The notes under the pieces: generated by a model
The model's database searches: none
The model's input: the letters and a program-made list of their open reading frames with translations, nothing else
What the model was told of the DNA's origin: nothing
Assembly (NCBI GenBank): GCA_963665075.1
Contig: OY762063.1
Location: forward strand, 145,040-209,039
From: Dehalococcoidia bacterium
Lineage (GTDB): Bacteria > Chloroflexota > Dehalococcoidia > Lucifugimonadales > GCA-2712585
Length of the DNA: 64,000 nucleotides
Direction: 5' to 3'
Made by a program: the position numbers and the translations under genes
Shown: positions 1,345 to 64,000 of the stretch, piece by piece
Numbering within the stretch: the first letter of the stretch is position 1
Layout: each line of letters begins with the position of its first letter

Positions 1345-1423
1345 TAGGGGGCGCTCGCCCTTCGACAAGCTCAGGGTGATCGGGGAAAGGGGCTAGATGG
1401 GGGAGGGTGAGCGGGAAAGGGGG
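1345..1423 (+). repeat. C module plus a duplicated GGGAAAGGGGCTAGATGGG between valS and the convergent 226-aa ORF
   Basis: GGCGCTCGCCCTTCGACAAGCTCAGGGTGATCGG at ~1350-1383. Confidence 0.8.
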
Positions 1424-2104
1424 CTAGATGGGCGAGGAGGAACCGCGAACCCGCTCCAGCCAGTTCAACCCCTTGCGGGTGTCGCTGGCGACCCGGGCCG
1501 GGTCCCAATAGTAGAGGCGGAGCTTGAACAGCCAGTAGGTGAATTCCTTGGACTGGGTGAGGCTGAACCCGTCCTGGTCGGGATAGCCCATCTTCTCCCT
1601 GAACTTTCCGATAAGACTGTCTAACCCGTCGTCGTAGATGCGACGGCATGCGGCATCGCTAACGTCTTCGACGTCCACCCTGCCGCCCCGGCGCATATCT
1701 TTGCGGACTTCTTCCTCCACGGCCAGGTGCAGGGCCTGCTCCACCACCACGCCGTACCAGAAGTTCAGGTATCCGCGGTACTTGTTGTAGCCAAGGAGGT
1801 TCTTCAGGCTTTCCTCGTTAACGTAGGCGGGGAAGCGGCCTTTGAAAAGGAGGTCTTCGATTTCCTGATTCTGGGCGGAATCGCCCAGTGCGGCGCACAT
1901 CCTCTCAGCCAGCAGCAAGCAGTCGAAGGCCTCGCCCTGGATGACGTAGCGATATAGACGCCCGTCGACGCGCTCTTCCGGCAACGTCCACATACTCATG
2001 GCTTCCAGGAGCGCCTCGGCCCAGGGCCGTCCGGCCTGGATGGCTTGCGAGAGCCGATCAAGGGCCTCCGCCTCCACGGACGCGGGAGGGCCTGCCGGTT
2101 CCAC
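1424..2104 (-). CDS. hypothetical protein (226 aa), family not recognised
   Basis: Longest ORF in its interval, 35 nt downstream of the HhH gene on the same strand. Its composition is balanced (YNKYRGYLNFWYGVVVEQALH, FTYWLFKLRLYYWDP), unlike the Arg/Pro/Gly-rich shadow ORFs overlapping it. Confidence 0.6.
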   Translation of the reverse strand: MEPAGPPASVEAEALDRLSQAIQAGRPWAEALLEAMSMWTLPEERVDGRLYRYVIQGEAFDCLLLAERMCAALGDSAQNQEIEDLLFKGRFPAYVNEESLKNLLGYNKYRGYLNFWYGVVVEQALHLAVEEEVRKDMRRGGRVDVEDVSDAACRRIYDDGLDSLIGKFREKMGYPDQDGFSLTQSKEFTYWLFKLRLYYWDPARVASDTRKGLNWLERVRGSSSPI

Positions 2105-2138
2105 GATTATTTCAACGGGAGCTTCGAAGGGCTTGACG

Positions 2139-2468
2139 TTAATTTGACTGCCCTCCTTTTGGAGGGATGACGTTCCTGGTTGGAACGCCCGCGTGGTCGG
2201 GAAACTCAGCCTTCAGACGCTCGTAAGCGGATACCTGGCCGGTGGTGACGTATTCGCGAATCTTGCCGCTGATGGCCTTGCCTATGCCCGGAACTTTCTT
2301 CAAGTCCGCGCCTTGCTGAGATGGGGAGTCAAGGGGATGGGGAAAGTCAGTGATAATTTCGACGGCGCGGCGATAAGCGCGGATTTTGAAGATGAGGTCG
2401 CCCTTCTTCTCAAGAAGGTGGGCCATATCCTCGAAGATGGCGGCTAATTCCTCGTTGACGTCGGACAT
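2139..2468 (-). CDS. small helix-hairpin-helix protein resembling the N-terminal 8-kDa/HhH region of family X DNA polymerases
   Basis: EELAAIFEDMAHLLEKKGDLIFKIRAYRRAVEII followed by LKKVPGIGKAISGKIREYVTTG. From memory this matches the PolX N-terminal pattern (..ELKGEN.FRVRAYRRAA.. LPGIGK.IA.KI.E). The gene starts 11 nt after the secA stop. Confidence 0.6.
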   Translation of the reverse strand: MSDVNEELAAIFEDMAHLLEKKGDLIFKIRAYRRAVEIITDFPHPLDSPSQQGADLKKVPGIGKAISGKIREYVTTGQVSAYERLKAEFPDHAGVPTRNVIPPKGGQSN

Positions 2469-2478
2469 TGCGCCGGCC

Positions 2479-5093
<2,615 letters not shown>

Positions 5094-5097
<4 letters not shown>

Positions 5098-6053: not shown

Positions 6054-6255
6054 TCTTCCCCCTGAAGGTAAGGTTTTGCCCTGATTCACGCCTTCGCGGG
6101 TGGGAATTGCGGGCCGGCAGGCGAAGGCTTGGCTGTCCGGACTCATTATAGCATAGCCCTTGGAGGGTACAAGATTAGCCAATGACGCCCGCTTTTTGCT
6201 ATACTGCGGTTGGCCTCACCGGAGGCCGCTTAATTTGTTATGTAGAGGAATGGCA

Positions 6256-7542: not shown

Positions 7543-7544
7543 GG

Positions 7545-7620
7545 GGAGTTCACCCCCATCCCCGTATCATGTACGGGGCGGGCTCTAACCTTCCCCCATC
7601 GATGGGGGAAGGGATAAGAA
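7545..7620 (+). repeat. B module with a nested extra hairpin
   Basis: CACCCCCATC, then CCCCGTA(7560-7566)-TCATG-TACGGGG(7572-7578), then CTAACCTTCCCCCATCGATGGGGGAAGGGATAAGAAG. Confidence 0.85.
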
Positions 7621-7628
7621 GTAGGAAG

Positions 7629-7982
7629 ATGACCACCGGAACGAGGTATCGGAGCGCGGCGGCGCATCTGTTGGAGCAGGCGCGTCGAGAACTAGACATC
7701 GGCGACAATCGGCAGGCGTCGGAGAAAGGCTGGGGCGCGGCGGCGCAGGCGGTGAAGGCAGTGGCGGAAGGTCGCGGCTGGCAGTATAAGTCTCATGCCG
7801 CCTTGTTCGACGTCGTGAGCAGATTGGCGAGAGAAACGGGCAACGACAGCCTTAAATCGCTCTTCCACACCGCCAATAGTCTGCACAGCAACTTCTACGA
7901 GGATACCCAAGACGATGAGATGGTAGCGGCAGGGCTGGTAGACGTTGCCAGGTTTGTGGCGCTGCTTGAGAAGGTGGAGTAG
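7629..7982 (+). CDS. PaREP1-like (HEPN-superfamily) small helical protein
   Basis: QASEKGWGAAAQAVKAVAEGRGW..SH..LFDVVSRLARETGND...FHTANSLHSNFYED...VAAGLVDVARFV follows the PaREP1 signature as I recall it (ASEK.WGAAA.A.KA.A... AN.LH.NFYE). I moved the start to ATG 7629 (AGGAAG upstream) because the first 20 track codons translate a B repeat. Confidence 0.6.
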   Translation: MTTGTRYRSAAAHLLEQARRELDIGDNRQASEKGWGAAAQAVKAVAEGRGWQYKSHAALFDVVSRLARETGNDSLKSLFHTANSLHSNFYEDTQDDEMVAAGLVDVARFVALLEKVE

Positions 7983-7985
7983 GGG

Positions 7986-10814: not shown

Positions 10815-10862
10815 GAAGGGGGGCGCTCGACCCTTCGACAAGCTCAGGGTGAGCGGAGGGCG
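10815..10862 (+). repeat. C module
   Basis: GGGCGCTCGACCCTTCGACAAGCTCAGGGTGAGCGG. Confidence 0.85.
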
Positions 10863-11134
10863 GGTGAGGGCGGCCTTGTTGTAGTAGAGGTGATTCGTTT
10901 CGTTTGGCTTCCTTTTTTTCTGTGGTGGGATACGAAGGGGGTTTTTATAGCTGATTGGGGGGGAATTCGGCATTCGTTATATGTTGTGGTGAGAACGAAT
11001 GGGGGGCTTTTACCGGAAGGGGGATGGGTTGGGTGGAACCTCCTGTGAAGTTGTGGAATTGGTATGTATGTTTCATAATAGAGAGGATAGCATGGGAGGG
11101 TGGTTGTGGCAAGGGGGAGGTGGGAGTTTTTTGG

Positions 11135-11790
11135 GGGGAGACGCCCCCATCTCAATCTTCCCCCGTGAAGGGGGAAGAGGTAAGAGGGAACTGGATTCCG
11201 GCTTTTGCCGGAATGACGGTTATGCAAAGGTCTCCGCTATGGGGGAGATGGGGGTAAGGGGCGGTGGATTCCCGCCTGCGCGGGAATGACGGGGAGGTAG
11301 GCGGGAATGACGGAGAGGTAGGCGGGAATGACGGAGAGGGGGTTGGGGGAGGGGGTAAGAGGGGAGGGGTTGATGACCCTTCGGCCCGCTCGACCCTTCG
11401 TCCTTCGACAAGCTCAGGATGAGATCAGGGTGAGCGGGGGAGGGTGGTCAGGGTGAGCGGAGGGATGGGGTTGTAGCGCGACGTGGTAGGGGCGACCGGC
11501 CGGTCGCCCCTACATTGAAGTGAGTGTGGGTTGCGGTGGATTCCCGCCTGCGCGGGAATGACGGGGAGGTAGGCGGGAATGACGGAGTTGTCGGAGGGGG
11601 AAGAGGTAAGAGGGGACTGGATTCCCGCCTGCGCGGGAATGACGGAGAGGGGGGTGGGAATGAGGGGGTGGGTTGATGGGGGAAGGGGTAAGAGGGGAGG
11701 CTTGCTCCCGCTCGACCCTTCGACAGGCCCTTCGACAAGCTCAGGACAGGCTCAGGGTGAGCGGGAGATGAGATCAGGGTGAGGGGGTGG
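11135..11790 (+). repeat. large intergenic repeat cluster downstream of pnp (B-A'-D, A plus 3x21-bp units, C, E palindrome, A, A, C)
   Basis: B at 11143, A' at 11192, D at 11218, A at 11266 with GCGGGAATGACGG(G/A)GAGGTAG x3, C at 11388, E at 11486-11513, A at 11538 and 11620, C at 11708-11765. Confidence 0.9.
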
Positions 11791-11794
11791 GGGG

Positions 11795-14140
11795 TTAGCG
11801 GTTGGGGCGGCGGTATCCGCCGTAGCCGCCGCCACCTCCGCCACCTCCGCCGCCACGGCGGGGGCCGGAGCCGGGGCGGTCTCTGCGGGGGCCGCTGTTG
11901 CGTCCGGGACCGCCACGACGTGGGGGGCGTCCGCCGCCGCCGCCGCCGTAACCGCGTCCACCGCCACCACCGCCTCCGTAACCACGTCCGCCGCCACCGC
12001 CGCCGCCGTAACCACGACCGCCGCGGGGCGGGCCTCCGCGACGCCCTCCGTCGCGGGGGCCGAAAGATCGGGGCGCGGGGCTTTCTTCGCCAAAGAGGGC
12101 GCGGCGGGACAGGTTGATGCGGCCCAGGTGGTCTATCTCCTGAATCATCACCGTTATCTCCTGGTCCATCGCCACGCCGTTGTCCATAGAGGCCATCTCC
12201 TCCGTGCGAAGGAGACCGTCCTTGCCCGGCACCAGTTCGATGAAGGCGCCGAAGTTGGTCATTCTGACGACCTTGCCGGTGAAGATGTCGCCGACTTCGA
12301 GCTCGCGTGTCATGTTCTCGATGCGGGTGCGGGCCTTGCGGATGGCTTCCGAGTCGCTGGCTCCAATCATCACCGAGCCATCGTCTTCGATGTCCACAGT
12401 GGCGCCGGATTCCTCGATGATGGCGCGGATGTTGCGTCCGCCGGGGCCGATGACGGCGCCGATCTTCTCTACGGGGATGGTGATGCGCTCCATCTTGGGC
12501 GCGTACTCGCTGAGGGAAGTCCTGGGCGTCTGAATGGCCTCGGCCATCTTGTCGAGGATGTGCAACCGGCCGACCCTGGCCTGCTCCAGGGCGATTTGCA
12601 GGATTTCCTGGGTGAGGCCATGAATCTTGATGTCCATCTGAAGGGCGTTAATGCCCTTGGCGGTGCCCGCGACTTTGAAGTCCATGTCGCCGAGGAAGTC
12701 CTCGACGCCCTGAATGTCCGACAGGACGGCGTAGTTGCCGTCGTCGCCCATGATGAGACCCATAGCCACGCCGGCGACGGGACTTTTCATGGGCACGCCC
12801 GCGTCCATGAGGGCGAGGGAGCTGCCGCAGACGCTGGCCATCGAGGTGCTGCCGTTGGAACTGAGAACCTCCGAAACTACGCGGAGGGCGTAGGGGAAAT
12901 CCTCCTCGGAGGGGAGGGCCGGTTCGATGGCGCGCTCGGCGAGGGCGCCGTGGCCGATTTCGCGCCGTCCGGTGAACATGCGGCCCGTCTCGCCGACGGA
13001 ATAGGGCGGGAAGTTGTAGTGGTGCATGAACCGCTTGCTGTCCTGGGGGCTGAGGGTGTCGAGGGTCTGCTTCATGCCGATGGTGGCGAGGGTGGCGATG
13101 CTCAACACCTGGGTCTGGCCGCGGGTGAAGAGGCCCGTGCCGTGGGTGCGTGGCAAGACGCCAACCTCGGAGGAGATGGGGCGGATTTCGTGGGCGGCGC
13201 GTCCGTCGGGCCGGATGCCCTGCTCCAGAATTCGGGAGCGGACAACGTCCTTCATCATCGACTTGAAGATGCCGGAGATCTGCTTGGGGTCTTCGTCGTC
13301 GAGGGCGGCGAACAACTCGTCCTTCAACTGCTGCTCCGCGTCCTGCCTGCCGGCCTTGTCGGGGCTGGGAGCCAACGCCGCTTCCAGCCGCCCGTTGAGG
13401 ACGCCTTCCACGCGCCGCTTGAGGTCTGATTCGTCGGGGACAATCGGCGCGGGCATCTTGGGCTTGCCGACGGCCTGCACCATCTCGTCAATGAGGTCGA
13501 TTATCTCGTCGTTGGCATCCTGGGCGCGGCCTATGGCTTCGAGGGCCACCTCTTCCGACACCTCGTTGGCGCCCGCTTCCACCATGCCGATGGCGCCGCG
13601 AACGCCGGCGACGGCCACGTTCAGCGTGCTCTCTTCAATCTGCTCGAAGGTGGGGTTGACGATGTATTCGCCGTCCTTGTAGGCCACACGGCAGGCGCCG
13701 ACGGGGCCTTCGAAGGGGATGTCCGAAATGGACACGGCGGCGGAAGCACCGACGATGCCCAGCACGTCCGGGGGGTTCTCCTGGTCCGTGGACATGACGG
13801 TGAGGACGATTTGGAGGTCGTTGTGGAGACCCTTGGGGAACTGGGGGCGCATGGGCCTGTCCACCAGTCGGGCGGAAAGGACGGCCTCGGTGCCGGGCCG
13901 GCCTTCTCTGCGGAAGAAGCTGCCGGGGATCTTTCCGACGGCGTAGAGCTTCTCCTCGAACTCCACGGTCAGGGGAAGGAAGTCGATGTCCGGGCGGGAT
14001 CTGGAGGACATGACCGCCGTGGCGAGGACGACGGTGTCGCCGCAGGTCACCTTGACGGCGCCGTTGGCCTGGGAAGCGAGCTTGCCCGTTTGGAGGGTAA
14101 GCAGCTTGCCGCCTATGTTTCTCTGAAAAGTATGTTCCAT
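11795..14140 (-). CDS. pnp: polynucleotide phosphorylase with ~99-aa C-terminal Arg/Gly-rich extension
   Basis: Two RNase PH-like domains, then KH and S1 (GDIFTGKVVRMTNFGAFIEL). After the S1 domain the ORF continues as ...GRGYGGGGGGGRGYGGGGGGGRGYGGGGGG...GGGGGGGGGGYGGYRRPNR. Confidence 0.96.
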   Translation of the reverse strand: MEHTFQRNIGGKLLTLQTGKLASQANGAVKVTCGDTVVLATAVMSSRSRPDIDFLPLTVEFEEKLYAVGKIPGSFFRREGRPGTEAVLSARLVDRPMRPQFPKGLHNDLQIVLTVMSTDQENPPDVLGIVGASAAVSISDIPFEGPVGACRVAYKDGEYIVNPTFEQIEESTLNVAVAGVRGAIGMVEAGANEVSEEVALEAIGRAQDANDEIIDLIDEMVQAVGKPKMPAPIVPDESDLKRRVEGVLNGRLEAALAPSPDKAGRQDAEQQLKDELFAALDDEDPKQISGIFKSMMKDVVRSRILEQGIRPDGRAAHEIRPISSEVGVLPRTHGTGLFTRGQTQVLSIATLATIGMKQTLDTLSPQDSKRFMHHYNFPPYSVGETGRMFTGRREIGHGALAERAIEPALPSEEDFPYALRVVSEVLSSNGSTSMASVCGSSLALMDAGVPMKSPVAGVAMGLIMGDDGNYAVLSDIQGVEDFLGDMDFKVAGTAKGINALQMDIKIHGLTQEILQIALEQARVGRLHILDKMAEAIQTPRTSLSEYAPKMERITIPVEKIGAVIGPGGRNIRAIIEESGATVDIEDDGSVMIGASDSEAIRKARTRIENMTRELEVGDIFTGKVVRMTNFGAFIELVPGKDGLLRTEEMASMDNGVAMDQEITVMIQEIDHLGRINLSRRALFGEESPAPRSFGPRDGGRRGGPPRGGRGYGGGGGGGRGYGGGGGGGRGYGGGGGGRPPRRGGPGRNSGPRRDRPGSGPRRGGGGGGGGGGYGGYRRPNR

Positions 14141-14474: not shown

Positions 14475-14557
14475 GTACTCTTTCTATTCCCTCTTTCTCT
14501 TTTCAAGTGCGAATTATAACATAGACGGGGCAGGTTTCAAATACCGCAAATCAACCG

Positions 14558-15421: not shown

Positions 15422-15543
15422 GAGACCTTTGCATAACTCCCTATTCATCCGAACATTCTATCAAAGAAACAACGCATCTATACTAAAACAGGCCCACCCC
15501 TGGATTCCCGTTTTCACGGGAATGACGGTTATGCAAAGGTAGG
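15422..15543 (+). mobile_element. MITE-like element bounded by inverted D modules, with one A hairpin inside
   Basis: Left end ACCTTTGCATAAC (15425-15437) and right end GTTATGCAAAGGT (15528-15540) form a perfect 13-bp inverted repeat. The interior carries GGATTCCCGT-TTTC-ACGGGAATGACGG (15502-15527). Confidence 0.6.
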
Positions 15544-19874: not shown

Positions 19875-20256
19875 GGTTTGTGGGGTGGCCTCGTAGATGA
19901 AGGAAAGATTGGGATTCAGGGGAGATTATATTGGAAACAGCCTTGGTGCGTCTGCGGGGAGTCACCCCCCACCCCCACTTTCCCGAGGGCAGGCTTTAAG
20001 CTTCCCCGTCAAAAGGGGAAGGGAGAAGATGGATTCCCGCCTTCGCGGGAATGACGAGGAGGGGTTGCGGGGGTGACGGTTATGCAAAGGTCTCCGTGAT
20101 GGGGGAAGGGAAAAGAGGGGGCATGGTTTGTGGGGTGGTCTCGTAGATGAAGGAAAGATTGGGGTCCAGGGGAGATTATATTGGAAACAGCCTTGGTGCG
20201 TCTGCGGGGAGTCACCCCCATCCCCCACTTTCCCGAGGGCAGGCTTAAAGCTTCCC
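19872..20256 (+). repeat. 135-bp direct repeat (19872-20006 and 20122-20256, period 250 bp) containing the amidohydrolase start codon and upstream region
   Basis: By-eye alignment: CATGGTTTGTGGGGTGG(C/T)CTCGTAGATGAAGGAAAGATTGG...GGAGATTATATTGGAAACAGCCTTGGTGCGTCTGCGGGGAGTCACCCCC...AGCTTCCC, with about 6 differences in 135. Confidence 0.85.
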
Positions 20257-20515
20257 TCATGTATGGAGAGCTATGCGTAACTGCCAAATGCGTCATCCAC
20301 CCCACCCGAATCACCCCCATCTCAATCTTCCCCCGTCAAGGGGGAAGAGGTAAGATGGATTCCCGCCTGCGCGGGAATGACGGAGGGGTGGCGGGAATGA
20401 CGAGGAGGGGTTGCGGGGGTGACGGTTATGCAAAGGTCTCCGTCAAGGGGGGAGGGAAAAGAGGGGCGCTGGCCCTTCGACAAGCTCAGGACAGGCTCAG
20501 GGTGAGCGCAAGGGG
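19960..20515 (+). repeat. intergenic repeat cluster (B-variant, A, D; B-variant; then a full D-inv/B/A/D composite; C)
   Basis: A hairpins at ~20030 and ~20357, D at 20077-20097 and 20424-20441, B at 20311-20355, C at 20466-20510. Confidence 0.85.
20265..20441 (+). mobile_element. 177-bp MITE-like composite (inverted D ends enclosing B and A modules)
   Basis: Left end GGAGAGCTATGCGTAAC (20265-20281) against the reverse complement of the right end GTTATGCAAAGGTCTCC (20425-20441) matches at 14/17. The internal left arm TGCCAAATGCGTCATCC...GAATCACCCCC is homologous to 63736-63762. Confidence 0.55.
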
Positions 20516-20518
20516 GGG

Positions 20519-20845
20519 TTAGGGGTCGGGGGCGGTTTCGATGAAGATTTTGACGGCGTGCCAGACGAACATTTCCGGGGTGAGGCTGAGTTCCTTCGAC
20601 AGGTCCTTCACCTGCTGGGCGAGGGGGCCGGTGAGGGAGAAGGTGACGCTCTTTTCGTCTTCGGCCCAGAGGAGAAGGGTGCGGAGGGACTCCAAGCCGA
20701 GTTGCGCCACAACCTCAGCGTTTTCGTCGGATTCCAGGGGGCGACGATGGAGGGTTACGGTTGTGCCGTCGCTTTCGGCCCAGTAGGAAAAATGGTCGTC
20801 GACGCCGATGGCGAAGGAAGGTTTGGGGGCTGGACAGGCTGTCAA
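20519..20845 (-). CDS. hypothetical small protein (108 aa), possible C-terminal ribbon-helix-helix-like segment
   Basis: Isolated ORF between two repeat clusters. The C-terminus SVTFSLTGPLAQQVKDLSKELSLTPEMFVWHAVKIFIE has a strand-helix-turn-helix pattern. No family recognised. Confidence 0.45.
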   Translation of the reverse strand: MTACPAPKPSFAIGVDDHFSYWAESDGTTVTLHRRPLESDENAEVVAQLGLESLRTLLLWAEDEKSVTFSLTGPLAQQVKDLSKELSLTPEMFVWHAVKIFIETAPDP

Positions 20846-20884: not shown

Positions 20885-21050
20885 TGGATATGGATTCCCG
20901 CCTGCGCGGGAATGACGGGGTGGGCAAGGGAATGACGGGGTGGGTAAGGGAATGACGGGGTGGGTAAGGGTCTGGCGGGGTGAGTAAGGGAATGACGGGG
21001 TGGGCAAGGGTCTGGCGGGGTGGGTAAGGGTCTGACGGATTGGGGAAGGG
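20885..21050 (+). repeat. A hairpin followed by ~7 tandem 20-bp units (GGGAATGACGGGGTGGGCAA and GGGTCTGGCGGGGTGGGTAA variants)
   Basis: Unit starts at 20908, 20928, 20948, 20968, 20988, 21008 and 21028. The array ends exactly at the lipA stop codon (21051). Confidence 0.85.
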
Positions 21051-24397: not shown

Positions 24398-24556
24398 CTA
24401 ATCTCCCCAAAACCGGGTACGTGTATTGTGCCGTTGAAGGGCGCGCCCTGTCAATCGGCATCAGGCAACTCTTTCACGTCTGAGCATGGGAATTTCGCGG
24501 GGCAGAAGACGGATTAGGAAATTCATATCCATTCCATACGGAGTCGCTGGGTTTGC

Positions 24557-26909: not shown

Positions 26910-27135
26910 GGATGGGGGTGGATGACAGCGATTTCCACCCCCATCCAAATCACCCTCACCTTAATCCTCTCCCTCAAGGGAGAGGAGAGGGAGATGGGCT
27001 TCCGCTCGACCCTTCGACAAGCTCAGGACAGGCTCAGGTGAGCGGGGGACTGGATTCCCGCCTGCGCGGGAATGACGGAGGGGGTGTGGGAATGACGAAG
27101 GGGGGTGCGGGATGACGAAGGGGGCGGGAATGACG
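26910..27135 (+). repeat. intergenic repeat cluster (9-bp-stem hairpin, B', C, A plus GGGAATGACG half-sites)
   Basis: GGGGGTGGA(26914-26922)/TCCACCCCC(26934-26942); B' CACCCTCACCTTAATCCTCTCCCTCAAGGGAGAGG at ~26950; C at ~27003; A at ~27051. Confidence 0.85.
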
Positions 27136-27219: not shown

Positions 27220-27939
27220 ATGATTGAGATTCAAGGAAAGATGGTCTACGAATCCCTGGAGGAAGTCATCGACCCCAGGCACACGGCGTTGATGATAATC
27301 GACATGCAGAACGGGCTGGCATCTCTGGAAGGATACACGGCGCGGCATGGCAAGTTCAGCATCGCCCACCAGCGGGAGATTCTGCCTCGCGTGCAGAAGA
27401 TGCTGAAGGCGGCGCGGGAACAGGACATCTGCATCGTCCACGTGCAGGTGGTGTTCGACAAGAACGGCGGCTCAAGTTCCCCAGCGTGGCTGTACATGAG
27501 CTCGCGGCTGCGGGATCTGGGCGCTTACTGGGGACACTCGATGGGGAACGACAGGCGCACCAGCCAGGAGGTGCTTATCGACGGCACGTGGGAGGCGGAG
27601 ATCATTCCCGAACTGGAACCGCTGCCCAACGAAATCGTCGTCAAGAAGCACCGAAACACGGCCTTCGTGAACACCCGCATGGATCAGATTCTCAAGTCCA
27701 ACCGGATAGATTCGCTGGTGGTGACGGGGACGAGCACCGCCGGATGCGTGCTGGCGACGTGCCTGGACGCGCTGTGGAACGACTACTACACGGTGGTAGT
27801 GTCGGACGCCATTGCCGACGGGTTCCCGGAACGGCACGAAGCGGGGGTGGCGATACTGCGTGAGAAGTTCGACATGCCGACCTGCGACGAGGTTTTGGGC
27901 ATCTGGGCGAAGCAGCGCGTGGGCGTGGCAGCGGCCTAG
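27220..27939 (+). CDS. isochorismatase-family cysteine hydrolase
   Basis: ALMIIDMQNG, and a catalytic Cys context LVVTGTSTAGCVLATCLDA. I moved the start to ATG 27220 (AAGGAGG upstream); the upstream track codons translate repeats. Confidence 0.85.
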   Translation: MIEIQGKMVYESLEEVIDPRHTALMIIDMQNGLASLEGYTARHGKFSIAHQREILPRVQKMLKAAREQDICIVHVQVVFDKNGGSSSPAWLYMSSRLRDLGAYWGHSMGNDRRTSQEVLIDGTWEAEIIPELEPLPNEIVVKKHRNTAFVNTRMDQILKSNRIDSLVVTGTSTAGCVLATCLDALWNDYYTVVVSDAIADGFPERHEAGVAILREKFDMPTCDEVLGIWAKQRVGVAAA

Positions 27940-28484
27940 CCGCTACCGACGTCCGGTTGGTCGAACAGGGAGCAGCCGGCGGCGAAGGGCGCCGACGTTG
28001 TGTTCAAGTCAAAAAGAATGCCGTCGACGGCATCCCGAATGAGACGGTCATATCTGGCCCGTCGCAAGGTCTTCCAGCGTCTTCCTTTGAAGACGGCGAC
28101 GCCTCCTGAAACGGCGACGGTGGCGTCGTAGACAACCCGGTGGCCCAGGGGAGTAAGTCCGTCCAGCCTCTTTTGCAACAGCCTGCGGCCTCTCAAGTCG
28201 ATGGAGAGGGCGCAGGTTACGCGTCCGGGCTGCCACGGCAAACGCAGTCTGACGTCAAAGCTCCGAAGCCCGGTAATTCGGCTTTCGACGCCGGAATCTT
28301 TGGGCTTGACGGATTCCTCCAGGGGGCGGAAGGGGCGGAATCCGTGCTGGCGAAGGGCGTGGACGAGCCTGGAGACAAGGGCTTCCATTGAGACGACGCG
28401 ACCGCGCCAGGTTCGCAACGGAGCCAGTTCAATCCCCTGAAGGGCGGAATACCGGCGGAAGCCTACCCGAACGTGGCGCGGCAT
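27936..28484 (-). CDS. hypothetical Arg-rich protein (~183 aa)
   Basis: Longest ORF in the interval. The N-terminal 69 track codons translate A/C repeats, so I moved the start tentatively to ATG 28484 (MPRHVRVG). It is convergent with the isochorismatase gene, and the two stops share a palindromic CTAG (27936-27939). Confidence 0.4.
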   Translation of the reverse strand: MPRHVRVGFRRYSALQGIELAPLRTWRGRVVSMEALVSRLVHALRQHGFRPFRPLEESVKPKDSGVESRITGLRSFDVRLRLPWQPGRVTCALSIDLRGRRLLQKRLDGLTPLGHRVVYDATVAVSGGVAVFKGRRWKTLRRARYDRLIRDAVDGILFDLNTTSAPFAAGCSLFDQPDVGSG

Positions 28485-28634
28485 CAAGGGCGCCCTGGGT
28501 GCAGTCCCTTGCTTGACGCCGAAATCACGGGCGTCGCTATGGGGCGAGCCGGAGCGGGTGGACCACGGTTTTATGTCAAGCGCCTTTGCCAATGCGGGGA
28601 GTATTATAGCGCGGGAGGGCTGGGTGAGGGAAGA

Positions 28635-28835
28635 TGAGACGGAATCCCGCTTTCGCGGGAACAAGGGGGAAGACGCTCGACCCTTCGACAAGCTCAGGGT
28701 GAGCGGGGGTATTGGGGGGACTGGATTCCGGCTTTCGCCGGAATGACGGATGTGGGTAGAGGGGGAAGGGAGAAGAGGGGAGTGGGTGGCTATTGGGGTG
28801 AGGTTCTTCGTCGCGGAGCCTCCTCAGAATGACAT
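28635..28835 (+). repeat. intergenic repeat cluster (degenerate A, C, A', F-type GTTCTTCGTCGCGGAGCCTCCTCAGAATGAC)
   Basis: A-like at 28641, C at 28673, A' (TTCCGGC-TTTC-GCCGGAA) at 28722, F at 28803-28832. Confidence 0.8.
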
Positions 28836-28862
28836 GGGGGCGCGAGGGGGAAGGGGGTGGGG

Positions 28863-31760: not shown

Positions 31761-31764
31761 TTTT

Positions 31765-32300
31765 CACCCCCATCCTAACCTTCCCCCATCGAGGGGGAAG
31801 GGAGAAGAAGGGGATGGATTCCCGCCTGCGCGGGAATGACGGAAGGGCGAGACGGGGGAAGTGATGGGACTGGATTCCGGCTTTCGCCGGAATGACGGGA
31901 TGGTGGGTGGGGGAAGGGAGAAGAAGGGAACGGGCGACAACAAGGGGCGTCCCTACGGAGGGATGGTTGGGGGAAGGGGGGAGATGGATTCCCGCCTGCG
32001 CGGGAATGACGGAAGGGCGAGACGGGGGAAGTGATGGGACTGGATTCCGGCTTTCGCCGGAATGACGGGATGGTGGGCGGGGGAAGGGAGAAGACGCTCG
32101 ACCCTTCGACAGGCTCAGGGTGAGCGGGAAGGAGGGTAGGCTCAGGGTGGGCGGGAAGGAGGGTAGGCGCAGGGTGATCGGGAAGGAGGGTAGGCTCAGG
32201 GTGAGCGGATGGGGTTTGGCTCAGGGTGAGAGGGCAACTCTTGTAGTTGCTCCTGCGGAGAGGGGGATGGGTTCCCGCTTTCGCGGGAATGACGGAAGGG
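31765..32300 (+). repeat. intergenic repeat cluster between purF and purM (B, A, A', a 112-bp near-identical duplication, C with 27-bp tandem units, A)
   Basis: 31813-31924 and 31983-32094 differ at one position (period 170). The 27-bp units GGCTCAGGGTGAGCGGGAAGGAGGGTA start at 32112, 32139, 32166 and 32193, with a degenerate fifth starting near 32218. Confidence 0.9.
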
Positions 32301-32330
32301 GATAGCGGGAACGAGAAGGGGTGAAGGGGG

Positions 32331-33785: not shown

Positions 33786-33859
33786 CCCCTAAAGGAGGAT
33801 TATAGACTTACGGGTTGGCGAGGGCAAGGGGGGAGGGAGTTCACCCGCGTTCCGGCCCC

Positions 33860-34230
33860 TCCCCTAGATTCCCGCTTTCGCGGGAATGACGGAGGTGGTT
33901 GAAGGGGGAAGGGATAAGATACCCTTCGACAAGCTCAGGGTGAGCGGAGGGTTGCGATGGATTCCCGCTTGCGCGGGAATGACGGGTGGGGTTGCGGGAA
34001 TGACGGGTGGGGTTGCGGGAATGACGGGTGGGGTTGCGGGAATGACGGGTGGGGTTGCGGGAATGACGGAGGGGGTTGCGGGAATGACGGAGGTGGTTGC
34101 GGATTGGCGATGGGGTTGCAGAACGACGGGTAGGGGCGACCGGCCGGTCGCCCCTACAGAGGAGAGCAAGGGGGGCGCCCTCACCCCGGCCCTCTCCCAG
34201 GATGGGAGAGGGGGGAAGAGGGGAAGGGGG
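33860..34230 (+). repeat. intergenic repeat cluster upstream of purF (A, C, A, ~6-7 tandem 21-bp units GCGGGAATGACGGGTGGGGTT, E palindrome, B')
   Basis: 21-bp unit starts at 33973, 33994, 34015, 34036, 34057 and 34078, with a degenerate one at 34099. E is GTAGGGGCGACCGGCCGGTCGCCCCTAC at 34130-34157. Confidence 0.9.
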
Positions 34231-34246
34231 AGGATGGGGGTTCATG

Positions 34247-37789: not shown

Positions 37790-38062
37790 AGGGGGATGGA
37801 TTCCCGCCTTCGCGGGAATGACGAGGGGGGGCGGGAATGACGAAGGAGGGAATGGGGAACGCTCGACCCTTCGACAGGCTCAGGGTGAGCGGGGGGAGTC
37901 ACCCCCATCCTGACCTTCCCCCGTCAAGGGGGAAGGGATAAGAGGGGAACGCTCGACCCTTCGACAGGCCCTTCGACAAGCTCAGGATGATCTCAGGGTG
38001 AGCGGGGGGAGTCACCCCCATCCTAACCTTGCCCCGTCAAGGGGGAAGGGAGAAGAGGGGAG
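37790..38062 (+). repeat. intergenic repeat cluster upstream of rpmH (A, C, B, C, B)
   Basis: A at 37797, C at 37861, B at 37899, C at 37950, B at 38010. Confidence 0.85.
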
Positions 38063-38086
38063 AGGATTGACACGAAAGGGGTCGAG

Positions 38087-42834: not shown

Positions 42835-42839
42835 GGGAA

Positions 42840-42985
42840 CTTCACCCCCATCCCAACCTTCCCCCATCAAGGGGGAAGGGGCAAGAGGGGAGGGCGCTCG
42901 ACCCTTCGACATGCTCAGGGTGAGCGGGAAGGGGTTAGGCTCAGGGTGAGCGGGGGAGTCACCCGTGGGATTCTTCGTCGCCAGG
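42840..42985 (+). repeat. intergenic repeat cluster after ileS (B, C with a duplicated GGCTCAGGGTGAGCGG, F-like)
   Basis: B at 42843-42888, C at 42894-42953, and GGGATTCTTCGTCGCCAGGGATTC at ~42967. Confidence 0.8.
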
Positions 42986-43607: not shown

Positions 43608-45107
43608 TTAGAGGGGGGATTGGGGGCGTTCGCCGAGTTGGACCTGGAAGAGGGCGGTTTGGCCGTCTCGCCACACTTCCACTTCTACGGTTTCGTCCAC
43701 GTTGAACTTGAGGCGCAGGAGGATGACGAAGTCGCGGAAGTTGGCGGTGGGCCGGCCGTTCATGGACATGATGACGTCGTCGTCCAGGAGGCCGGCGGCC
43801 GCGGCCGGGCCGTCTTCCATGACGGTCCGGATGAGGATGCCGCCGGTGACGGGCATGTTCCTGTCCTCCGCCATTTCCGCGTCCATCTCGGAGACGATGA
43901 CGCCAAGCCAGGGCCAGCGGACGCGCCCCCATTCGATAAGCTGGTTGGAGACGTGGATGGCGGTTTCGCCGCCGACGGCGAAGCCGATGCCTTCGACTCT
44001 TTCGCCGCGAATGGCGGCGGTGTTGATGCCGACGATTTCGCCGGCCAGGTTCATTAGCGGGCCGCCGCTGTTGCCGGGGTTTATGACGGCGTCCGTCTGG
44101 ATCAGGTCGTAGAGGACTTTATCGTCATCGAGTTCGAGGCTGCGGTCGAGGGCGGAGACGATGCCGAGGGTGACGGATGGGCCGCCGGCGAGGGTGAGGG
44201 CGTTGCCGATGGCGATGACCCATTCGCCGACGCGGACGCCTTCGGGGTCGGCGAATGGGATGAAGGGAAGGTCGGTTTCGTCCACGCGCAGAAGGGCGAG
44301 ATCGGTGAGGGGGTCGGAACCTTCCAGTTCGGCGTCTAGCTTGCGTCCGTCGTCCAGGGTTACGGAGACGGTGAGGGCGTCTTCTATGACGTGGTGGTTG
44401 GTGAGGATATGGCCGTCGCCGTCGATGACCACGCCGGAGCCGCTGTGGGTTTGCTCGTCGTCAGTGTCGGTGGCTTCCGCCATGATGGCGACGACGGAAA
44501 CGACGGCGGCGCGGACTTGTTCGACCATCGAAGCGATGTCGTAGAGGCTGGCGACGGGGGGCGGGCTTTCGGGCGTGGGGTTGGGGACGAAGTGGGGGGT
44601 GGGTTCGGGCGTCGGCTCAGGCGTCGGCTCAGGCGTCGGTTCGGGTGTCGGTTCGGGCGTAGGCTCGGGTGTGGGCTCGGGCGTCGGTTCGGGCGTTGGT
44701 TCCTGAGTGGGTTCCGGCGTCGGCGGAGGCGTTGGTTCAGGGGTGGGCGTCTCAGTTGGCGTCGGCGTGGGTGTCGGCGTCGGCGTTAGGGTGGGAGACT
44801 GGGTAGGCGTGGGTACAGGCGTGAGAGGAGGATTAGGAGTTGGTCGAGGTCGGGCTGTCGGAGATGGAGGCGGCGTTGGCGTGGGGGCGGCGACTACGGG
44901 TTGCGGCGTCGCCGTTGGTGTCGGTGGGGGAGCGGGGGTTGGGGTGGCGATTGCCTGGGTGGGAGCGATGGTTGGCGAGGGGGTGGGGGGTGCGTCGTTG
45001 TTGTCGACGGGTCTGGAGGGGAAGCAGGCGACGAGGAGGAGCGCCGCGAGGAGGGGGAGGATGGCGGCGGCGGTTCGTCGGGATATGGGGGTTGGTCGGA
45101 TGGGCAT
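43608..45107 (-). CDS. HtrA/DegP-family serine protease (trypsin-like plus PDZ) with N-terminal anchor and ~160-aa Pro/Thr/Glu linker
   Basis: Catalytic triad contexts TNHHVIE, DLALLRV, GNSGGPL. One C-terminal PDZ domain. An N-terminal hydrophobic segment AAAILPLLAALLLVA is followed by (EPTP)n. Confidence 0.9.
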   Translation of the reverse strand: MPIRPTPISRRTAAAILPLLAALLLVACFPSRPVDNNDAPPTPSPTIAPTQAIATPTPAPPPTPTATPQPVVAAPTPTPPPSPTARPRPTPNPPLTPVPTPTQSPTLTPTPTPTPTPTETPTPEPTPPPTPEPTQEPTPEPTPEPTPEPTPEPTPEPTPEPTPEPTPEPTPHFVPNPTPESPPPVASLYDIASMVEQVRAAVVSVVAIMAEATDTDDEQTHSGSGVVIDGDGHILTNHHVIEDALTVSVTLDDGRKLDAELEGSDPLTDLALLRVDETDLPFIPFADPEGVRVGEWVIAIGNALTLAGGPSVTLGIVSALDRSLELDDDKVLYDLIQTDAVINPGNSGGPLMNLAGEIVGINTAAIRGERVEGIGFAVGGETAIHVSNQLIEWGRVRWPWLGVIVSEMDAEMAEDRNMPVTGGILIRTVMEDGPAAAAGLLDDDVIMSMNGRPTANFRDFVILLRLKFNVDETVEVEVWRDGQTALFQVQLGERPQSPL

Positions 45108-45129
45108 TGTTGTGGGTTTCGTGGGGGGG

Positions 45130-45345
45130 GGGAATCACCCTCACCTTAATCCTCTCCCTCAAGGGAGAGGAAAGAAGATGGGATCTCCATCAAGGGAGAG
45201 GATTAAGATGGGGTCTCCTTCAGGGTGAAGGGGGGAGATGGGATCGCTCTTTCGCGGGAGTAGGGGTTGTGCAAAGGTTGCGTCAAGGGAGAAGATGGAT
45301 TCCCGCCTTCGCGGGAATGACGAAGGGGGTGGCGGGAATGACGGT
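45130..45345 (+). repeat. intergenic repeat cluster (B', degenerate copies, D-variant, A plus half-site)
   Basis: B' at 45135-45172, GGTTGTGCAAAGGTTGCG at ~45265, A at 45296. Confidence 0.8.
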
Positions 45346-46146: not shown

Positions 46147-46224
46147 GGGGCCTCCGATATGTATTTTAGCAGGGGAATTGTGAAGGGGGGTGGTAATTAT
46201 AGCGGTTGTGGGGGACGGGGTGGG

Positions 46225-46545
46225 GAATCACCCCCATCTCAATCTTCCCCCGTCAAGGGGGAAGAGGTAAGAGGAGACTGGATTCCGGCTTTCGCGGGAG
46301 CAAGAGGGGGGCGCTCGACCCTTCGACAGGCCCTTCGACAAGCTCAGGACAGACTCAGGGTGAGCGGGAGTGCGGGTTTGGTGTGGCGACGGGGGGCACC
46401 CCCATCTCAATCTTCCCCCATGAAGGGGGAAGAGGCTAATGGGCGCCCTTGGGAGGGTTGTGCAACGTTCTCCATGAAGGGGGAAGAGGTTAATTGGCGC
46501 TCTTGGGGGGTATGCAAAGGTCTGCGTCAAGGGGGAAGGGATAAG
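46225..46545 (+). repeat. intergenic repeat cluster (B, decayed A, C, B, B-fragment, D-variant)
   Basis: B at 46228 and 46397. The A copy at 46279 has a broken stem (TTCCGGC...GCGGGAG). C at 46311-46368. GTATGCAAAGGTCTGCG at 46510. Confidence 0.8.
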
Positions 46546-46555
46546 ATGGGAGGGG

Positions 46556-49315: not shown

Positions 49316-49574
49316 GTTGTGTTGGAGGGGTGAAATCAGAGTCGTTTGGAAAACGAGTATTGGGGTTTTGAGGGGAAATCAGGCGTACAATGGGGAAATT
49401 TGGGGCGTAGTCGTTTCAAAAAATCCGGGAAACGACTCCTCTGCGAGGGTGGATTTTTGCCATCCTTGTGGGCAGGCAGCGAGGTTTTGTTGGATGTCGG
49501 CGACGTGCATGGGTTTGCAAGGGTAGGGTAGCAGGGGAGGGGGATTTGTGGCAAGGAAATGTTGTCAGTTTGGG

Positions 49575-49832
49575 GGAACACCCCCATCCCAACCTTCCCC
49601 CATTAAGGGGGAAGGGATAAGAGGGGAAGGGCGGTTATGCAAAGGTCTCTGTCGAGGGGGAAGGGGTAAGAGGGGATGGATTCCGGCTTTCGCCGGAATG
49701 ACGGGATTGGTTGGGGGTGAGGGGGACCGCTCGACCCTTCGACAGGCTCAGGGTGAGCGGGGGGGGGGGGGGGGAACACCCCCATCCTAACCTTCCCCCG
49801 TCAAGGGGGAAGGGAGAAGAGGTAAGAGGGGA
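49575..49832 (+). repeat. intergenic repeat cluster (B, D, A', C, G16 homopolymer, B)
   Basis: B at 49579, D at 49632, A' at 49676, C at 49728, 16 consecutive G at 49759-49774, B at 49778. Confidence 0.85.
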
Positions 49833-49837
49833 GGGGG

Positions 49838-50717: not shown

Positions 50718-50775
50718 GGGTGGATTCCCGCCTACGCGGGAATGACGAGTGTGGGTGGCGGGAATGACGGGTGGG
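50718..50775 (+). repeat. A module plus GGGAATGACGG half-site
   Basis: GGATTCCCGC-CTAC-GCGGGAATGACG at 50722, half-site at ~50759. Confidence 0.85.
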
Positions 50776-51804: not shown

Positions 51805-51895
51805 CGGTGGATTCCCGCCTGCGCGGGAATGACGGGAGGGTGACGGGAATGACGAAAGGGGACGGAAGGGGAGGCGGGAATGACGGAGGGAGGAG
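51805..51895 (+). repeat. A module plus three GGGAATGACG half-sites
   Basis: A at 51808; half-sites near 51845 and 51876. Confidence 0.8.
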
Positions 51896-51907
51896 GGATT
51901 GGGCATG

Positions 51908-52711: not shown

Positions 52712-52870
52712 GGGGATGGATTCCCGCTTTCGCGGGAATGACGGTTATACAAAGGTCTCCAAGATGGGAGAGGGGGCATGGATTCCCGCCTACGCGGGAA
52801 TGACGGTGGGGGTCTAGGGGGAAGGGGGAAGACACCCTCACCTTAATCCTCTCCCTCAAGGGAGAGGAGA
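52712..52870 (+). repeat. intergenic repeat cluster (A, D, A, B')
   Basis: A at 52716, GGTTATACAAAGGTCTCC at 52743, A at 52780, B' at 52834. Confidence 0.85.
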
Positions 52871-52910
52871 AGGAATGGGATGCTCTCGCGAAGGGGAAGA
52901 GGGGCATGGG

Positions 52911-56464: not shown

Positions 56465-56520
56465 AAGATGGATTCCCGCCTTCGCGGGAATGACGGGCGC
56501 CGGTGAGGGGGAAGGGAGAA
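56465..56520 (+). repeat. A module plus B fragment
   Basis: GGATTCCCGC-CTTC-GCGGGAATGACGG at 56469, followed by GGGGGAAGGGAGAAG. Confidence 0.85.
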
Positions 56521-57179: not shown

Positions 57180-57214
57180 ACTCAAAGTTAGGGGCCGCTG
57201 CTCAGGCGTAAAAC

Positions 57215-59039: not shown

Positions 59040-59048
59040 GATAGGCTG

Positions 59049-60341: not shown

Positions 60342-60353
60342 AAGGTGAAGTGA

Positions 60354-60812: not shown

Positions 60813-60821
60813 TGGCCTCTT

Positions 60822-62802: not shown

Positions 62803-62807
62803 GAGGA

Positions 62808-63716
62808 ATGAAACGAATGGAAGCATTGATGGAGACCCGTCTGCCCAATCTGATGTACCGCGGAAAGGTGCGGGACACGTACAGCCTGGACGATGAGACG
62901 CTGCTGATGGTGGCGTCGGACAGGATTTCAGCCTTCGACGTAGTGCTGCCCACGGGCATACCGCTAAAGGGGCTGGTGTTGAGTCGGATTTCGTCGTTCT
63001 GGTTCGACAAGACGGCGCACCTGATACCGAATCACCTGATAGCGATGGGAGACGCGCCGGGGGCCATTCCGTCGGACTCGCCCGTGGGTGAGGTGCCGGA
63101 GTCTATCGCTCGGCAGGCGATGGTGGTGAAGAAGGCTGATCGGGTGGACGTGGAGTGCATCGTGCGGGGATACATCGCGGGGTCGGCATGGGCGGAGTAT
63201 AGGCGCGAAAGAACGGTTTTCGGTAAGCCGATGTCCGCCGGGTTGCAGGAGGGGCAGATCTTCCCGGAGCCGATTTTCACGCCTACCACGAAGGCGGAGG
63301 AGGGGCACGATGAGAACATCAGCCTGGAGGAAGTGCGGAACATGGTGGGCGCGGACGTGGCGACGCAGCTGGAGGAGAAGAGCATCGCGGTCTACGAGTT
63401 CGCGCGGGATTACGCCTCCAGCAAGGGGATAATTCTCGCCGACACGAAGCTGGAGTTCGGTTTCGTGGACGGGGAGTTGATTCTGATTGACGAGATTTTC
63501 ACGCCGGATTCGAGCCGCTTCTGGGACATGGAGGGGTACGAGCCGGGGAAGGACCAGCCCAGCTTCGACAAGCAGTACGTGCGGGACTGGCTGGTGGCGC
63601 AGGGGTGGGACAAGGAGCCGCCCGCGCCGGAATTGCCGAGCGAGATTGTCGCGAACACGTCAGCGCGGTACCAGGAAGCATTCCGAAAGCTGACGGGGAT
63701 GGAGTTGCTTGGATAA
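62808..63716 (+). CDS. purC: phosphoribosylaminoimidazole-succinocarboxamide synthase
   Basis: YRGKVRDTY, LADTKLEFG, and DEIFTPDSSRFW (long-form SAICAR synthetase). Confidence 0.94.
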   Translation: MKRMEALMETRLPNLMYRGKVRDTYSLDDETLLMVASDRISAFDVVLPTGIPLKGLVLSRISSFWFDKTAHLIPNHLIAMGDAPGAIPSDSPVGEVPESIARQAMVVKKADRVDVECIVRGYIAGSAWAEYRRERTVFGKPMSAGLQEGQIFPEPIFTPTTKAEEGHDENISLEEVRNMVGADVATQLEEKSIAVYEFARDYASSKGIILADTKLEFGFVDGELILIDEIFTPDSSRFWDMEGYEPGKDQPSFDKQYVRDWLVAQGWDKEPPAPELPSEIVANTSARYQEAFRKLTGMELLG

Positions 63717-63718
63717 GA

Positions 63719-63869
63719 GGAGACCTTTGGGTAACTGCAAAATACGCCATCCGAATCACCCTCACCCCAGCCCTCTCCCTCAAGGGAGAGGGGGCAAGAG
63801 GGGGATGGATTCCCGCCTTCGCGGGAATGACGAAGGGGAGGCGGGAATGACGGTTACGCTGAGGTCTTC
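63719..63869 (+). mobile_element. 151-bp MITE-like composite (inverted D-like ends enclosing B' and A), starting 3 nt after the purC stop
   Basis: Left end GGAGACCTTTGGGTAAC (63719-63735) against the reverse complement of GTTACGCTGAGGTCTTC (63853-63869) matches at 13/17. Internal B' at 63756 and A at 63805. Confidence 0.5.
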
Positions 63870-64000
63870 GTAAGAGGGAGAGAAAGATTGCCTGAAAGCA
63901 GCAGAAGAAACAGGACGAAGCGGAGTCGTCACTCGCCTAACAGAAGGCGGCGCGCGGCGGCGCGCAGGCAGATAGTATCGACCGACGTCGCCAGGCCGAA

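Follow-up and report, generated by a model that had tools for sequence, protein, structure and literature searches.

Why should short hairpin elements that lie between genes of either orientation all read in one direction along a chromosome? The question is raised by a 64,000-nucleotide (nt) stretch of contig OY762063.1 (the window), in which small hairpin modules, here called A, B, B', C, D and E, are present in ~20 of the roughly 25 gaps of at least 60 nt. The segment 60258-63704 is 85.5% identical in nucleotide sequence to contig L196 of a Dehalococcoidia metagenome-assembled genome (MAG) and 80.8% identical to L159, so the window derives from a Dehalococcoidia-like organism. The orientation of the modules is locked to one chromosomal strand, and their best characterised family, module A, belongs by its sequence to the family of the Neisseria NTS motif, the target of a single-stranded DNA (ssDNA) nuclease.

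Module polarity follows strand composition and not transcription

Modules were counted with fuzzy patterns on both strands of the window, and counts are given as forward:reverse relative to the + strand. Module A occurs 34:0 (26 intergenic copies and 8 in purH), the 'tails' that correspond to its 3' arm 55:0, B' 5:0, C 13:0, D 5:1 and B 10:1, the lone reverse B match (7589-7612) being a palindrome with a symmetric loop and flank. The exact A sequence ATTCCCGC-N4-GCGGGAAT occurs 20 times against 0.00 expected, and an nhmmer profile of A finds 51 matches of at least 8 bits on the + strand and none on the - strand, decayed reverse copies included. The modules follow one another in variable order (B-A, A-C, C-B, B-D, D-A) while their polarity stays constant, and the two gaps that hold none (14475-14557 and 24398-24552; 83 and 155 nt) are both divergent promoter gaps. 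A preliminary description, drawn from the letters of this DNA, had claimed repeats of a single orientation across the gaps. Repeat finding recovers its families along with their flanks. The arrangement is real in ~20 gaps and in purH, and a search by pattern and profile for inverted copies at comparable frequency, which would have spoken against it, returned none for A, B' and C and the one symmetric palindrome for B.

The window has a GC content of 62%, and its + strand is G-rich everywhere (GC skew positive throughout, +0.03 to +0.30) and T-rich across most of its length. For genes called by codon-position GC, with Pfam checks on secA, pnp, purH, ileS, rpsO, jag and others, the coding skew of the + strand is +0.178 in + genes and +0.180 in - genes; as the two are equal, the skew is a property of the strand and is not derived from transcription. 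The G-rich strand carries 222 of 440 genes in the window set and the related loci L129-L243 taken together, without gene-strand bias. Concordance with the skew holds for 62 of the 63 modules in the window, and module polarity is identical between two - genes (36 cases) and between two + genes (5 cases).

The same rule governs related genomes. Scanning species-representative genomes on both strands with the B pattern gave 115 loci, 87 of them from Dehalococcoidia/Chloroflexota MAGs and the others from Proteobacteria, Nitrospiria, Binatia and further groups; each locus is an 8-kb sample selected by its B seed, in which genes were called, GC skew was computed from coding sequence only and every A, B, B' and C copy was scored. 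Concordance with the sign of the local coding skew in the Chloroflexota loci increases with skew, from 177 of 214 copies overall to 130 of 143 at |skew| >= 0.05 and 92 of 97 at |skew| >= 0.10, and at the last threshold the non-seed families (A, B' and C) are concordant in 44 of 44 cases. Counted per locus, 49 of 53 are concordant (p = 7e-11), with a Spearman coefficient of 0.70 between skew and net orientation, while agreement with the strand of the co-directional genes on either side is random (50/103). Single chromosomes hold both orientations and switch between them with the skew, as in CBDBPI010000002.1 (L183 versus L195 and L196) and across six loci of OY762634.1. The discordant copies that were checked belong to tight inverted dimers (L157, L185, L208) or to a pair around an ssnA-like gene (L229). 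Two expectations of the preliminary description are thereby borne out, namely that orientation is tied to the chromosome strand and independent of transcription, and that it flips, which it does in relatives by following the sign of the skew.

Loci from other taxa behave differently, which makes the strand lock specific to the Dehalococcoidia lineage. In other phyla 27 of 56 B copies agree with the skew, and B there is typically paired with an inverted copy 55-80 nt away in a tight dimer. For A, 122 of 250 hairpins scored in 120 IMG/VR contigs from mixed taxa agree with the skew, and both orientations occur in 39 of the 60 IMG/VR contigs with more than one A copy. The literature that we searched holds no report of a strand-locked, skew-tracking orientation for REP, CGTC or NTS elements; the near-absolute lock is the novel aspect, module A itself being already known.

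Some features of individual loci and of strand composition may be recorded here. On OY762634.1 (3.5 Mb) the skew is positive at 24 kb, negative at 192 and 592 kb, positive at 1720 kb and negative at 2016 and 2392 kb (L209, L188, L230, L234, L215 and L206 in turn), and repeat orientation tracks each switch. Outside Dehalococcoidia (L144, L146, L151, L164, L174, L210, L227, L243; also L201) B forms symmetric dimers of a reverse copy, a 15-40 nt spacer and a forward copy, whose inner flanks GGATGGGGGTG and CACCCCCATCC can pair to give a REPIN-like structure. Coding GC skew is very strong, +0.18 in the window and up to about 0.3 in relatives.

Module A, the NTS motif and ssnA-like genes

On the - strand module A reads CGTC-ATTCCCGC-GCAG-GCGGGAAT-CCA, and it thus has the CGTC tag, the 8-bp stem starting with AT, the 4-nt loop and the CCA tail by which CGTC-1 repeats are defined (PMC3733652, Di Nocera et al., BMC Genomics 2013). 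The NTS query CGTCATTCCCGCGMAVGCGGGAATCYRG, used with at most one mismatch as in its authors' own criterion, gives 18 matches (3 of them perfect), all on the - strand, against 0 expected. These sequence matches place module A in the CGTC-1 REP / Neisseria dRS3 / NTS (Ssn-related motif, SRM) family, CGTC-1 having already been equated with dRS3 (PMC3733652); B, B', C and D represent REP-like hairpin families of their own. The organisation differs: CGTC-1 repeats are mostly head-to-head dimers, with head-to-tail pairs described as 'negligible' (PMC3733652), whereas the window copies are entirely head-to-tail (34:0) and the related loci hold a few tight inverted dimers. The 2013 survey found CGTC repeats in five phyla, mostly in alpha-Proteobacteria, and named Chloroflexi for GTAG repeats only (PMC3733652); in the literature searched, the module A motif was not found reported from Dehalococcoidia. 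As in CGTC-1/dRS3/NIME mosaics, the elements of the window cluster between genes and are interleaved with other families, REPs lying occasionally within genes. The purH gene (28863-30737, - strand), an intact open reading frame (ORF) of 624 aa with eight in-frame 42-nt A/NTS units, carries them in the linker between its MGS-like and AICARFT domains as eight copies of the peptide RHSRADGNPSPSTL. This array resembles the Rickettsia palindromic elements (RPE), of which R. conorii RPE-6 is CGTC-1 and RPE-4 is CGTC-4 (PMC3733652), in that a CGTC-type palindrome interrupts the linker of an intact housekeeping gene without breaking its reading frame, and it differs from them in being amplified to eight tandem copies.

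The partner of the 28-nt NTS motif is SsnA, a 94-aa single-domain GIY-YIG protein that binds NTS solely as an ssDNA hairpin and cuts a few nucleotides upstream, leaving the reverse strand uncut (PMC11893778, Nat Commun 2025). The motif typically lies on both sides of the ssnA gene, symbionts are over-represented among genomes rich in it, and the proposed role of the pair in Neisseria is to limit transformation, its biological role elsewhere being stated as unknown (PMC11893778). Module A shares with that system the 8-bp stem, the 4-nt loop, the upstream CGTC tag and the C that follows the palindrome, and its many copies in what is probably a symbiont lineage agree with the over-representation of symbionts among SRM-rich genomes (PMC11893778). 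The differences concern arrangement. Both orientations are common in Neisseria and in our control loci, whereas the window copies are single, lie on one strand and follow the skew, and a transformation-limiting role does not predict a strand lock. The main text of the NTS paper is without Chloroflexota and does not relate orientation to replication, nor does it describe tandem 3'-arm arrays or an in-frame array such as that of purH (PMC11893778).

Genes for such a nuclease are present in relatives. Using a GIY-YIG consensus solely as a tblastn probe and verifying the matches afterwards, we found genes of 86-91 aa in three Dehalococcoidia loci (L229, L197 and L170) and in five A-bearing IMG/VR loci, and all the proteins tested match Pfam GIY-YIG (E 1e-13 to 1e-16). 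Inverted A hairpins of the CCCGT/TTTC subtype, to which the window copy at 15501 also belongs, stand on both sides of the L229 gene; the L170 gene is bracketed by hairpins of the GTTCCCGC variant, and the L197 gene has A downstream. Over 86 aa and 100% coverage the L229 protein is 68.6% identical (E 7e-31) to a protein of N. gonorrhoeae whose locus has 9 NTS copies in 1.4 kb. These values lie within the published tblastn limits for homologues (>75% coverage, E < 1e-10 and, more strictly, 60% identity to Neisseria SsnA), with the query direction reversed and the sequence gonococcal, not meningococcal. In addition, 80 metagenomic loci encode relatives at 63-74% identity, and a perfect A-type hairpin lies within 170 nt of the gene in 62 of them and on both sides in 46, at median distances of 37 nt upstream and 29 nt downstream and most commonly with the CGTC sense upstream and the antisense downstream. 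B or C flanks the gene in 0 of these 80 loci. The window itself contains no GIY-YIG gene. The GIY-YIG protein has no model in NCBIfam, and its search against PDB sequences returned spurious WD40 matches only. In L248 (NZ_CP119142.1, a 2.17-Mb N. gonorrhoeae chromosome that PLSDB lists as a plasmid) the ssnA-like match is traversed by a first start-to-stop ORF of only 71 aa (658-873) while the tblastn match spans 601-858, so that the gene may be truncated in that strain or may start at a codon that the ORF lister does not use. An orphan ORF of 108 aa in the window (20519-20845, - strand), considered as an ssnA candidate, was rejected as it has no GIY-YIG or other Pfam domain; it shows gene-like codon-position GC and has large repeat blocks on both sides.

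Conservation of pairing in the stems indicates that the hairpin itself is under constraint, as the preliminary description had proposed. Of the 34 A stems, 31 are perfect 8-bp palindromes within conserved TGG...GACGG flanks, and the three stem classes of the window (CCCGC/GCGGG, CCGGC/GCCGG and CCCGT/ACGGG), which rise to five with the related loci added, are all perfectly paired; B has four perfect stem classes. The paired variants listed earlier are thus present. Among 35 distinct A sequences, three of the eight pairs change on both sides, 96.4% of alignment cells are paired, a share that falls to 31-54% once the 3' partner is shifted by 1-3 columns, and the covariation score of 0.183 (0.080 in shuffles) is reached by 0 of 500 shuffles, which supplies for A a formal covariation test of the kind that had been called for. 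The A classes are subfamilies, so that the window samples only a small number of independent events; 7 of the 8 CCCGT copies, for example, are purH tandem units. The copies that flank ssnA in the metagenomic set have 18 distinct, perfectly complementary stems and are, at the level of sequence, stronger evidence than the window that pairing matters. Template-switch 'correction' of quasi-palindromes could preserve the complementarity of the arms without selection. The loops do not drift freely, as had been thought: A loops on the + strand are all [C/T]-T-[G/T/A]-C, save two CTAC copies, which corresponds to the G-M-A-V loop of the published NTS motif.

The enzyme of this system is of a different kind from the one first suggested. 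The preliminary description had favoured a Y1 transposase of the REP/RAYT or IS200/IS605 type and had suggested looking for its gene between inverted A or E modules, while noting that no transposase is present in the window. That last observation holds, and with a single E. coli RayT query tblastn found no RAYT/Y1 transposase in the window or in ~0.65 Mb of related Chloroflexota loci; what A hairpins flank in inverted pairs (L229, L170) are ssnA-like genes, which encode a hydrolytic GIY-YIG ssDNA nuclease. RAYT was also considered as the partner of A, B and C and was set aside, as the RayT query matched only a Gallionella locus (L135) beside an unrelated GTAG REP. The modules share with REP/BIME/REPIN-RAYT systems the form of short, abundant intergenic hairpins in mosaics, and A shares with REP-RAYT a gene for an ssDNA-acting partner that is flanked by the repeats. 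Unlike REPs and REPINs, however, A, B and C have no GT[AG]G tetranucleotide on the 5' side of the hairpin foot, and here they do not form inverted doublets; the partner of A belongs to the GIY-YIG superfamily and not to HUH-Y1. The tetranucleotide is present in E only, a canonical GTAG 'double-foot' REP of the type associated with RAYT subclass 2.4 (PMC6006769). Two identical 28-nt perfect E palindromes, GTAGGGGCGACCGGCCGGTCGCCCCTAC, lie at 11486-11513 and 34130-34157 and hint at a separate REP/RAYT system in this genome.

Candidate causes of the strand lock

In the reading that we prefer, at a probability of roughly 0.4, the lock results from selection at replication forks exerted through a resident Ssn-type nuclease. 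Several families of small, non-coding hairpin elements have spread through the intergenic DNA. By the standard account the G/T-rich strand of a chromosome serves as lagging-strand template; here the G-rich, T-rich strand would be that template and would be transiently single-stranded. An A copy that exposed its cleavable hairpin on this template would be cut by the nuclease and lost, and the surviving copies would be those with the cleavable strand on the continuously copied template and its non-cleavable complement on the exposed one. B and C might be locked by the same single-strand logic through other enzymes. Every A copy in the window has its SsnA-cleavable (NTS-sense) reading on the C-rich strand. 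In L169 the S10-spc ribosomal protein operon is encoded on the G-rich strand, where a leading-strand gene would be expected.

Several observations weigh against this reading. Firstly, the equation of the G-rich strand with the lagging-strand template is drawn from the general rule and a single ribosomal operon; the leading-strand informants in the sampled loci are that operon and five tRNA genes, which point different ways, the three tRNA genes in loci with |skew| >= 0.05 lying on the C-rich strand, and no rRNA, dnaA or dnaN gene was found in these loci. On OY762634.1, moreover, the skew changes sign more than twice among six loci, exceeding a two-replichore pattern. Secondly, an ssnA gene in the source genome is presumed from the sequences of its relatives. 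Thirdly, hundreds of NTS copies in either orientation coexist with SsnA in Neisseria, so that cleavage at forks is not a general consequence of the system. Finally, B, B' and C are locked just as strictly, many of their copies with no A nearby, and for this the specificity of SsnA cannot account; the lack of decayed reverse copies in the window fits a bias at insertion at least as well as selection.

The last two points together favour a process that is indifferent to sequence, such as biased incorporation, below which we nevertheless do not place selection; selection is ranked slightly above it because it needs published enzymology only. Incorporation of this kind, a possibility that we regard as somewhat doubtful, would set the bias at insertion, the elements spreading as ssDNA intermediates that enter the chromosome at the replication fork. 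Polarity could then be fixed to fork direction by a Y1/HUH enzyme (RAYT or IS200/IS605-like) yet to be discovered, or else fragments cut by an Ssn nuclease could anneal to the lagging-strand template and join the nascent lagging strand in a recombineering-like manner. The annealing route would place the NTS-sense strand in the nascent lagging strand and hence on the C-rich strand, where it is seen, and the modules nest and cluster in varying order as if shared flanks gave annealing homology. A polarity common to all families, those without A nearby included, and the absence of fossil reverse copies agree with either route. Turnover between related species agrees as well: after the gene 62808-63716 the window has a ~150-nt composite (63720-63870) while the orthologous gaps of L196 and L159 (85% and 81% identity) hold unrelated sequence, the shared flank resuming beyond the composite at GGGAGA..GCCTGAAAGCAGCAG, and the absence of the composite from these gaps means that the elements turn over. 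No target-site signature could be defined from the comparison with these two related MAGs, which counts against insertion, as do the failure to find a Y1 transposase in the window or the ~0.65 Mb of related loci, with the sole RAYT in Gallionella, and the nature of GIY-YIG nucleases, which are hydrolytic and to our knowledge are without strand-transfer activity. The IS200/IS605 elements provide a precedent. They depend on ssDNA and have a replication-linked orientation bias through ssDNA at the lagging-strand template (PMC3971601, PMC6006769), and they resemble A in that a hairpin is recognised on a single DNA strand and orientation correlates with fork direction. Their biases, however, are statistical and significant in about a quarter to a third of chromosomes, whereas the lock in the window is near-absolute and concerns tiny non-coding modules; and the strand of A that the enzyme recognises is the C-rich one, which, if the G-rich strand is the lagging-strand template, is opposite to the expectation from IS608, whose recognised strand lies on that template.

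Common to selection by the nuclease and to the annealing route is the proposal that Ssn-type nucleases and their motifs act at forks in vivo, either policing the exposed template or releasing ssDNA that is re-incorporated in the lagging strand. We hold this broader proposal to be rather unlikely, though the strand lock yields from it a testable prediction on ssDNA cleavage or incorporation at forks. How CGTC-type REPs multiply has been a question since 2013, when they were said to 'apparently lack a dedicated transposase' (PMC3733652); re-incorporation, if true, would be a new, transposase-free route for their multiplication and would answer that question. B and C would in that case mark further undescribed pairs of ssDNA enzyme and hairpin. 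The Dehalococcoidia lineage offers a natural experiment in which a motif that its nuclease reads in one direction is almost perfectly tied to a replication-associated asymmetry; strong skew and lock may share one cause, long exposure of ssDNA. The repeats also provide a marker of replichore orientation where genomes are without gene-strand bias.

A polar host function, comparable with KOPS or Chi, is an improbable explanation. G-rich or G-quadruplex tracts, or the hairpins, would be needed on one template and be positively selected there, which would suit a lock common to several unrelated hairpin families, and composition lends it some substance: module-bearing gaps are strongly G-rich on the + strand (G 0.40-0.51, C 0.10-0.20, the excess lying in the linkers between hairpins), and G-quadruplex-type motifs number 44 on the + strand and 2 on the - strand, 28 of them within repeat-filled gaps. 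Against it, the elements are missing from orthologous sites in species 81-85% identical, and they vary freely in copy number and order; the tandem expansions and the purH insertion look selfish or slippage-like, and the same families form symmetric inverted dimers in other phyla.

It is less probable still that no strand-specific process operates and that local slippage, unequal exchange and gene conversion multiply the repeats, which then co-invert with the skew upon rearrangement. Local duplication is clearly active, as arrays of 20, 21, 27, 42 and 54-56 nt and a duplicated 115-nt block attest, and co-inversion would keep the concordance and could explain the skew switches of OY762634.1. Such multiplication does not account for one orientation across ~20 separate gaps over 64 kb, or for the same rule in 87 loci from dozens of MAG species, the non-seed families included; local duplication offers no means of fixing, separately in each genome, the polarity that the repeats first had relative to the skew, and that polarity does not differ between the related genomes examined.

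Terminators or stabilisers of mRNA 3' ends oriented by the transcription unit are the least credible explanation, for although most copies lie downstream of a gene, as REPs generally mostly do (PMC3733652), and both module-free gaps are divergent promoter gaps, their orientation is the same after + and - genes and random with respect to genes in the related loci, which contradicts the account, one module block lies in a divergent gap (37797-38065), the window has no Rfam match at gathering thresholds, and a role as symmetric RNA hairpins, which they may have, could not produce a strand lock.

Layout of the module-bearing sites and neighbouring features

All the module-bearing sites described here read on the + strand. 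At 1345-1423 a C hairpin (GCTCGCCCTTCGACAAGCTCAGGGTGA) is followed by a repeat of its 3' arm, at 7551-7612 a B hairpin with a CACCCCCATC flank lies at the start of a PaREP1-family ORF, and 10815-10870 holds a solitary C. The largest mosaic (11135-11794) consists of B, A of the CCGGC subtype, D, A with two 21-nt tails, C, the E palindrome at 11486-11513, A with a tail, A and C. Inverted D ends (GAGACCTTTGCATAAC ... GTTATGCAAAGGT) enclose an A of the CCCGT/TTTC subtype at 15431-15540, flanked by two + genes. Two composites, each with an inverted-D-like end, B, A, tails and D, precede a C at 19960-20518, and at 20891-21050 an A is followed by seven tandem 20-nt copies of its 3' arm. B', C, A and tails occupy 26930-27135 between two + genes, whereas 28665-28862 has C, A (CCGGC subtype) and half-B remnants; the purH array, translated from the - strand, spans 29816-30153.

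The second half of the window is similarly organised. The block 31761-32330 has B, then A and A(CCGGC) duplicated as a 115-nt unit (98% identity), C, a 27-nt array of C arms and A, and 33840-34246 has A, C, A with ~8 tandem 21-nt tails, the E palindrome at 34130-34157 and B'. The divergent gap between rpmH and a + gene (37797-38065) holds A with tails, C, B, C and B, and downstream of ileS (+) B, C and an extra C arm are found at 42835-42960. B' with an adjoining inverted B' arm, a D-like segment and A with a tail lie at 45125-45345; B, a degenerate A, C, B and 54-nt repeats ending in D at 46220-46555; and B, D, A (CCGGC subtype), C and B at 49572-49837. Smaller sites comprise A with a tail (50721-50775), A with three tails (51808-51897), A, D, A and B' (52717-52890) and A with a half-B remnant (56469-56520). 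The last, at 63720-63870 downstream of a + gene, is a composite of an inverted D end, B', A, a tail and a D-like end. Tandem Repeats Finder reports arrays of 42 nt x8 (purH), 21 nt x8 (33973-34136), 20 nt x7 (20908-21050) and 27 nt x5 (32111-32234).

D-type inverted ends bound three composites (15431-15540, ~20259-20440 and 63720-63870), most blocks being without such ends. When folded, composites such as the 20255-20445 unit form a single long, branched palindrome that the D ends close (z = -4.2 and -5.0). As regards features of MITEs, the D-bounded composites show no target-site duplication and their orientation is non-random. A decayed inverted A (CGTCATCCACCCCACCCGAATC) was considered as the left half of the composites and was not used, the resemblance being too weak.

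Two ORFs traverse repeat blocks and are probably artefacts liable to annotation as hypothetical proteins: that at 31775-32347 has no Pfam domain and gave four weak matches only in a homology search, and the long ORF 27936-28691 likewise has no Pfam domain. The remark in the preliminary description that translated repeats populate databases as spurious proteins finds little support in these four weak, domain-less relatives. In Dehalococcoidia MAGs the repeats do account for spurious ORF calls and, likely, for assembly breaks.

The rpmH-rnpA-yidC-jag cluster (34247 to ~37740, - strand), a cluster typically near the origin, has no adjoining dnaA here, and the skew does not change sign at it. Coding tandem repeats unlike the hairpin families occur in an HtrA-like protease gene (12 nt x10, 44599-44747) and at the 3' end of pnp (30 nt x3, 11931-12024). 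The ORF at 7569-7982 (+), with the B hairpin at its 5' end, belongs to the Pfam 'archaeal PaREP1/PaREP8' family (E 1e-18) although it lies in a bacterial genome.

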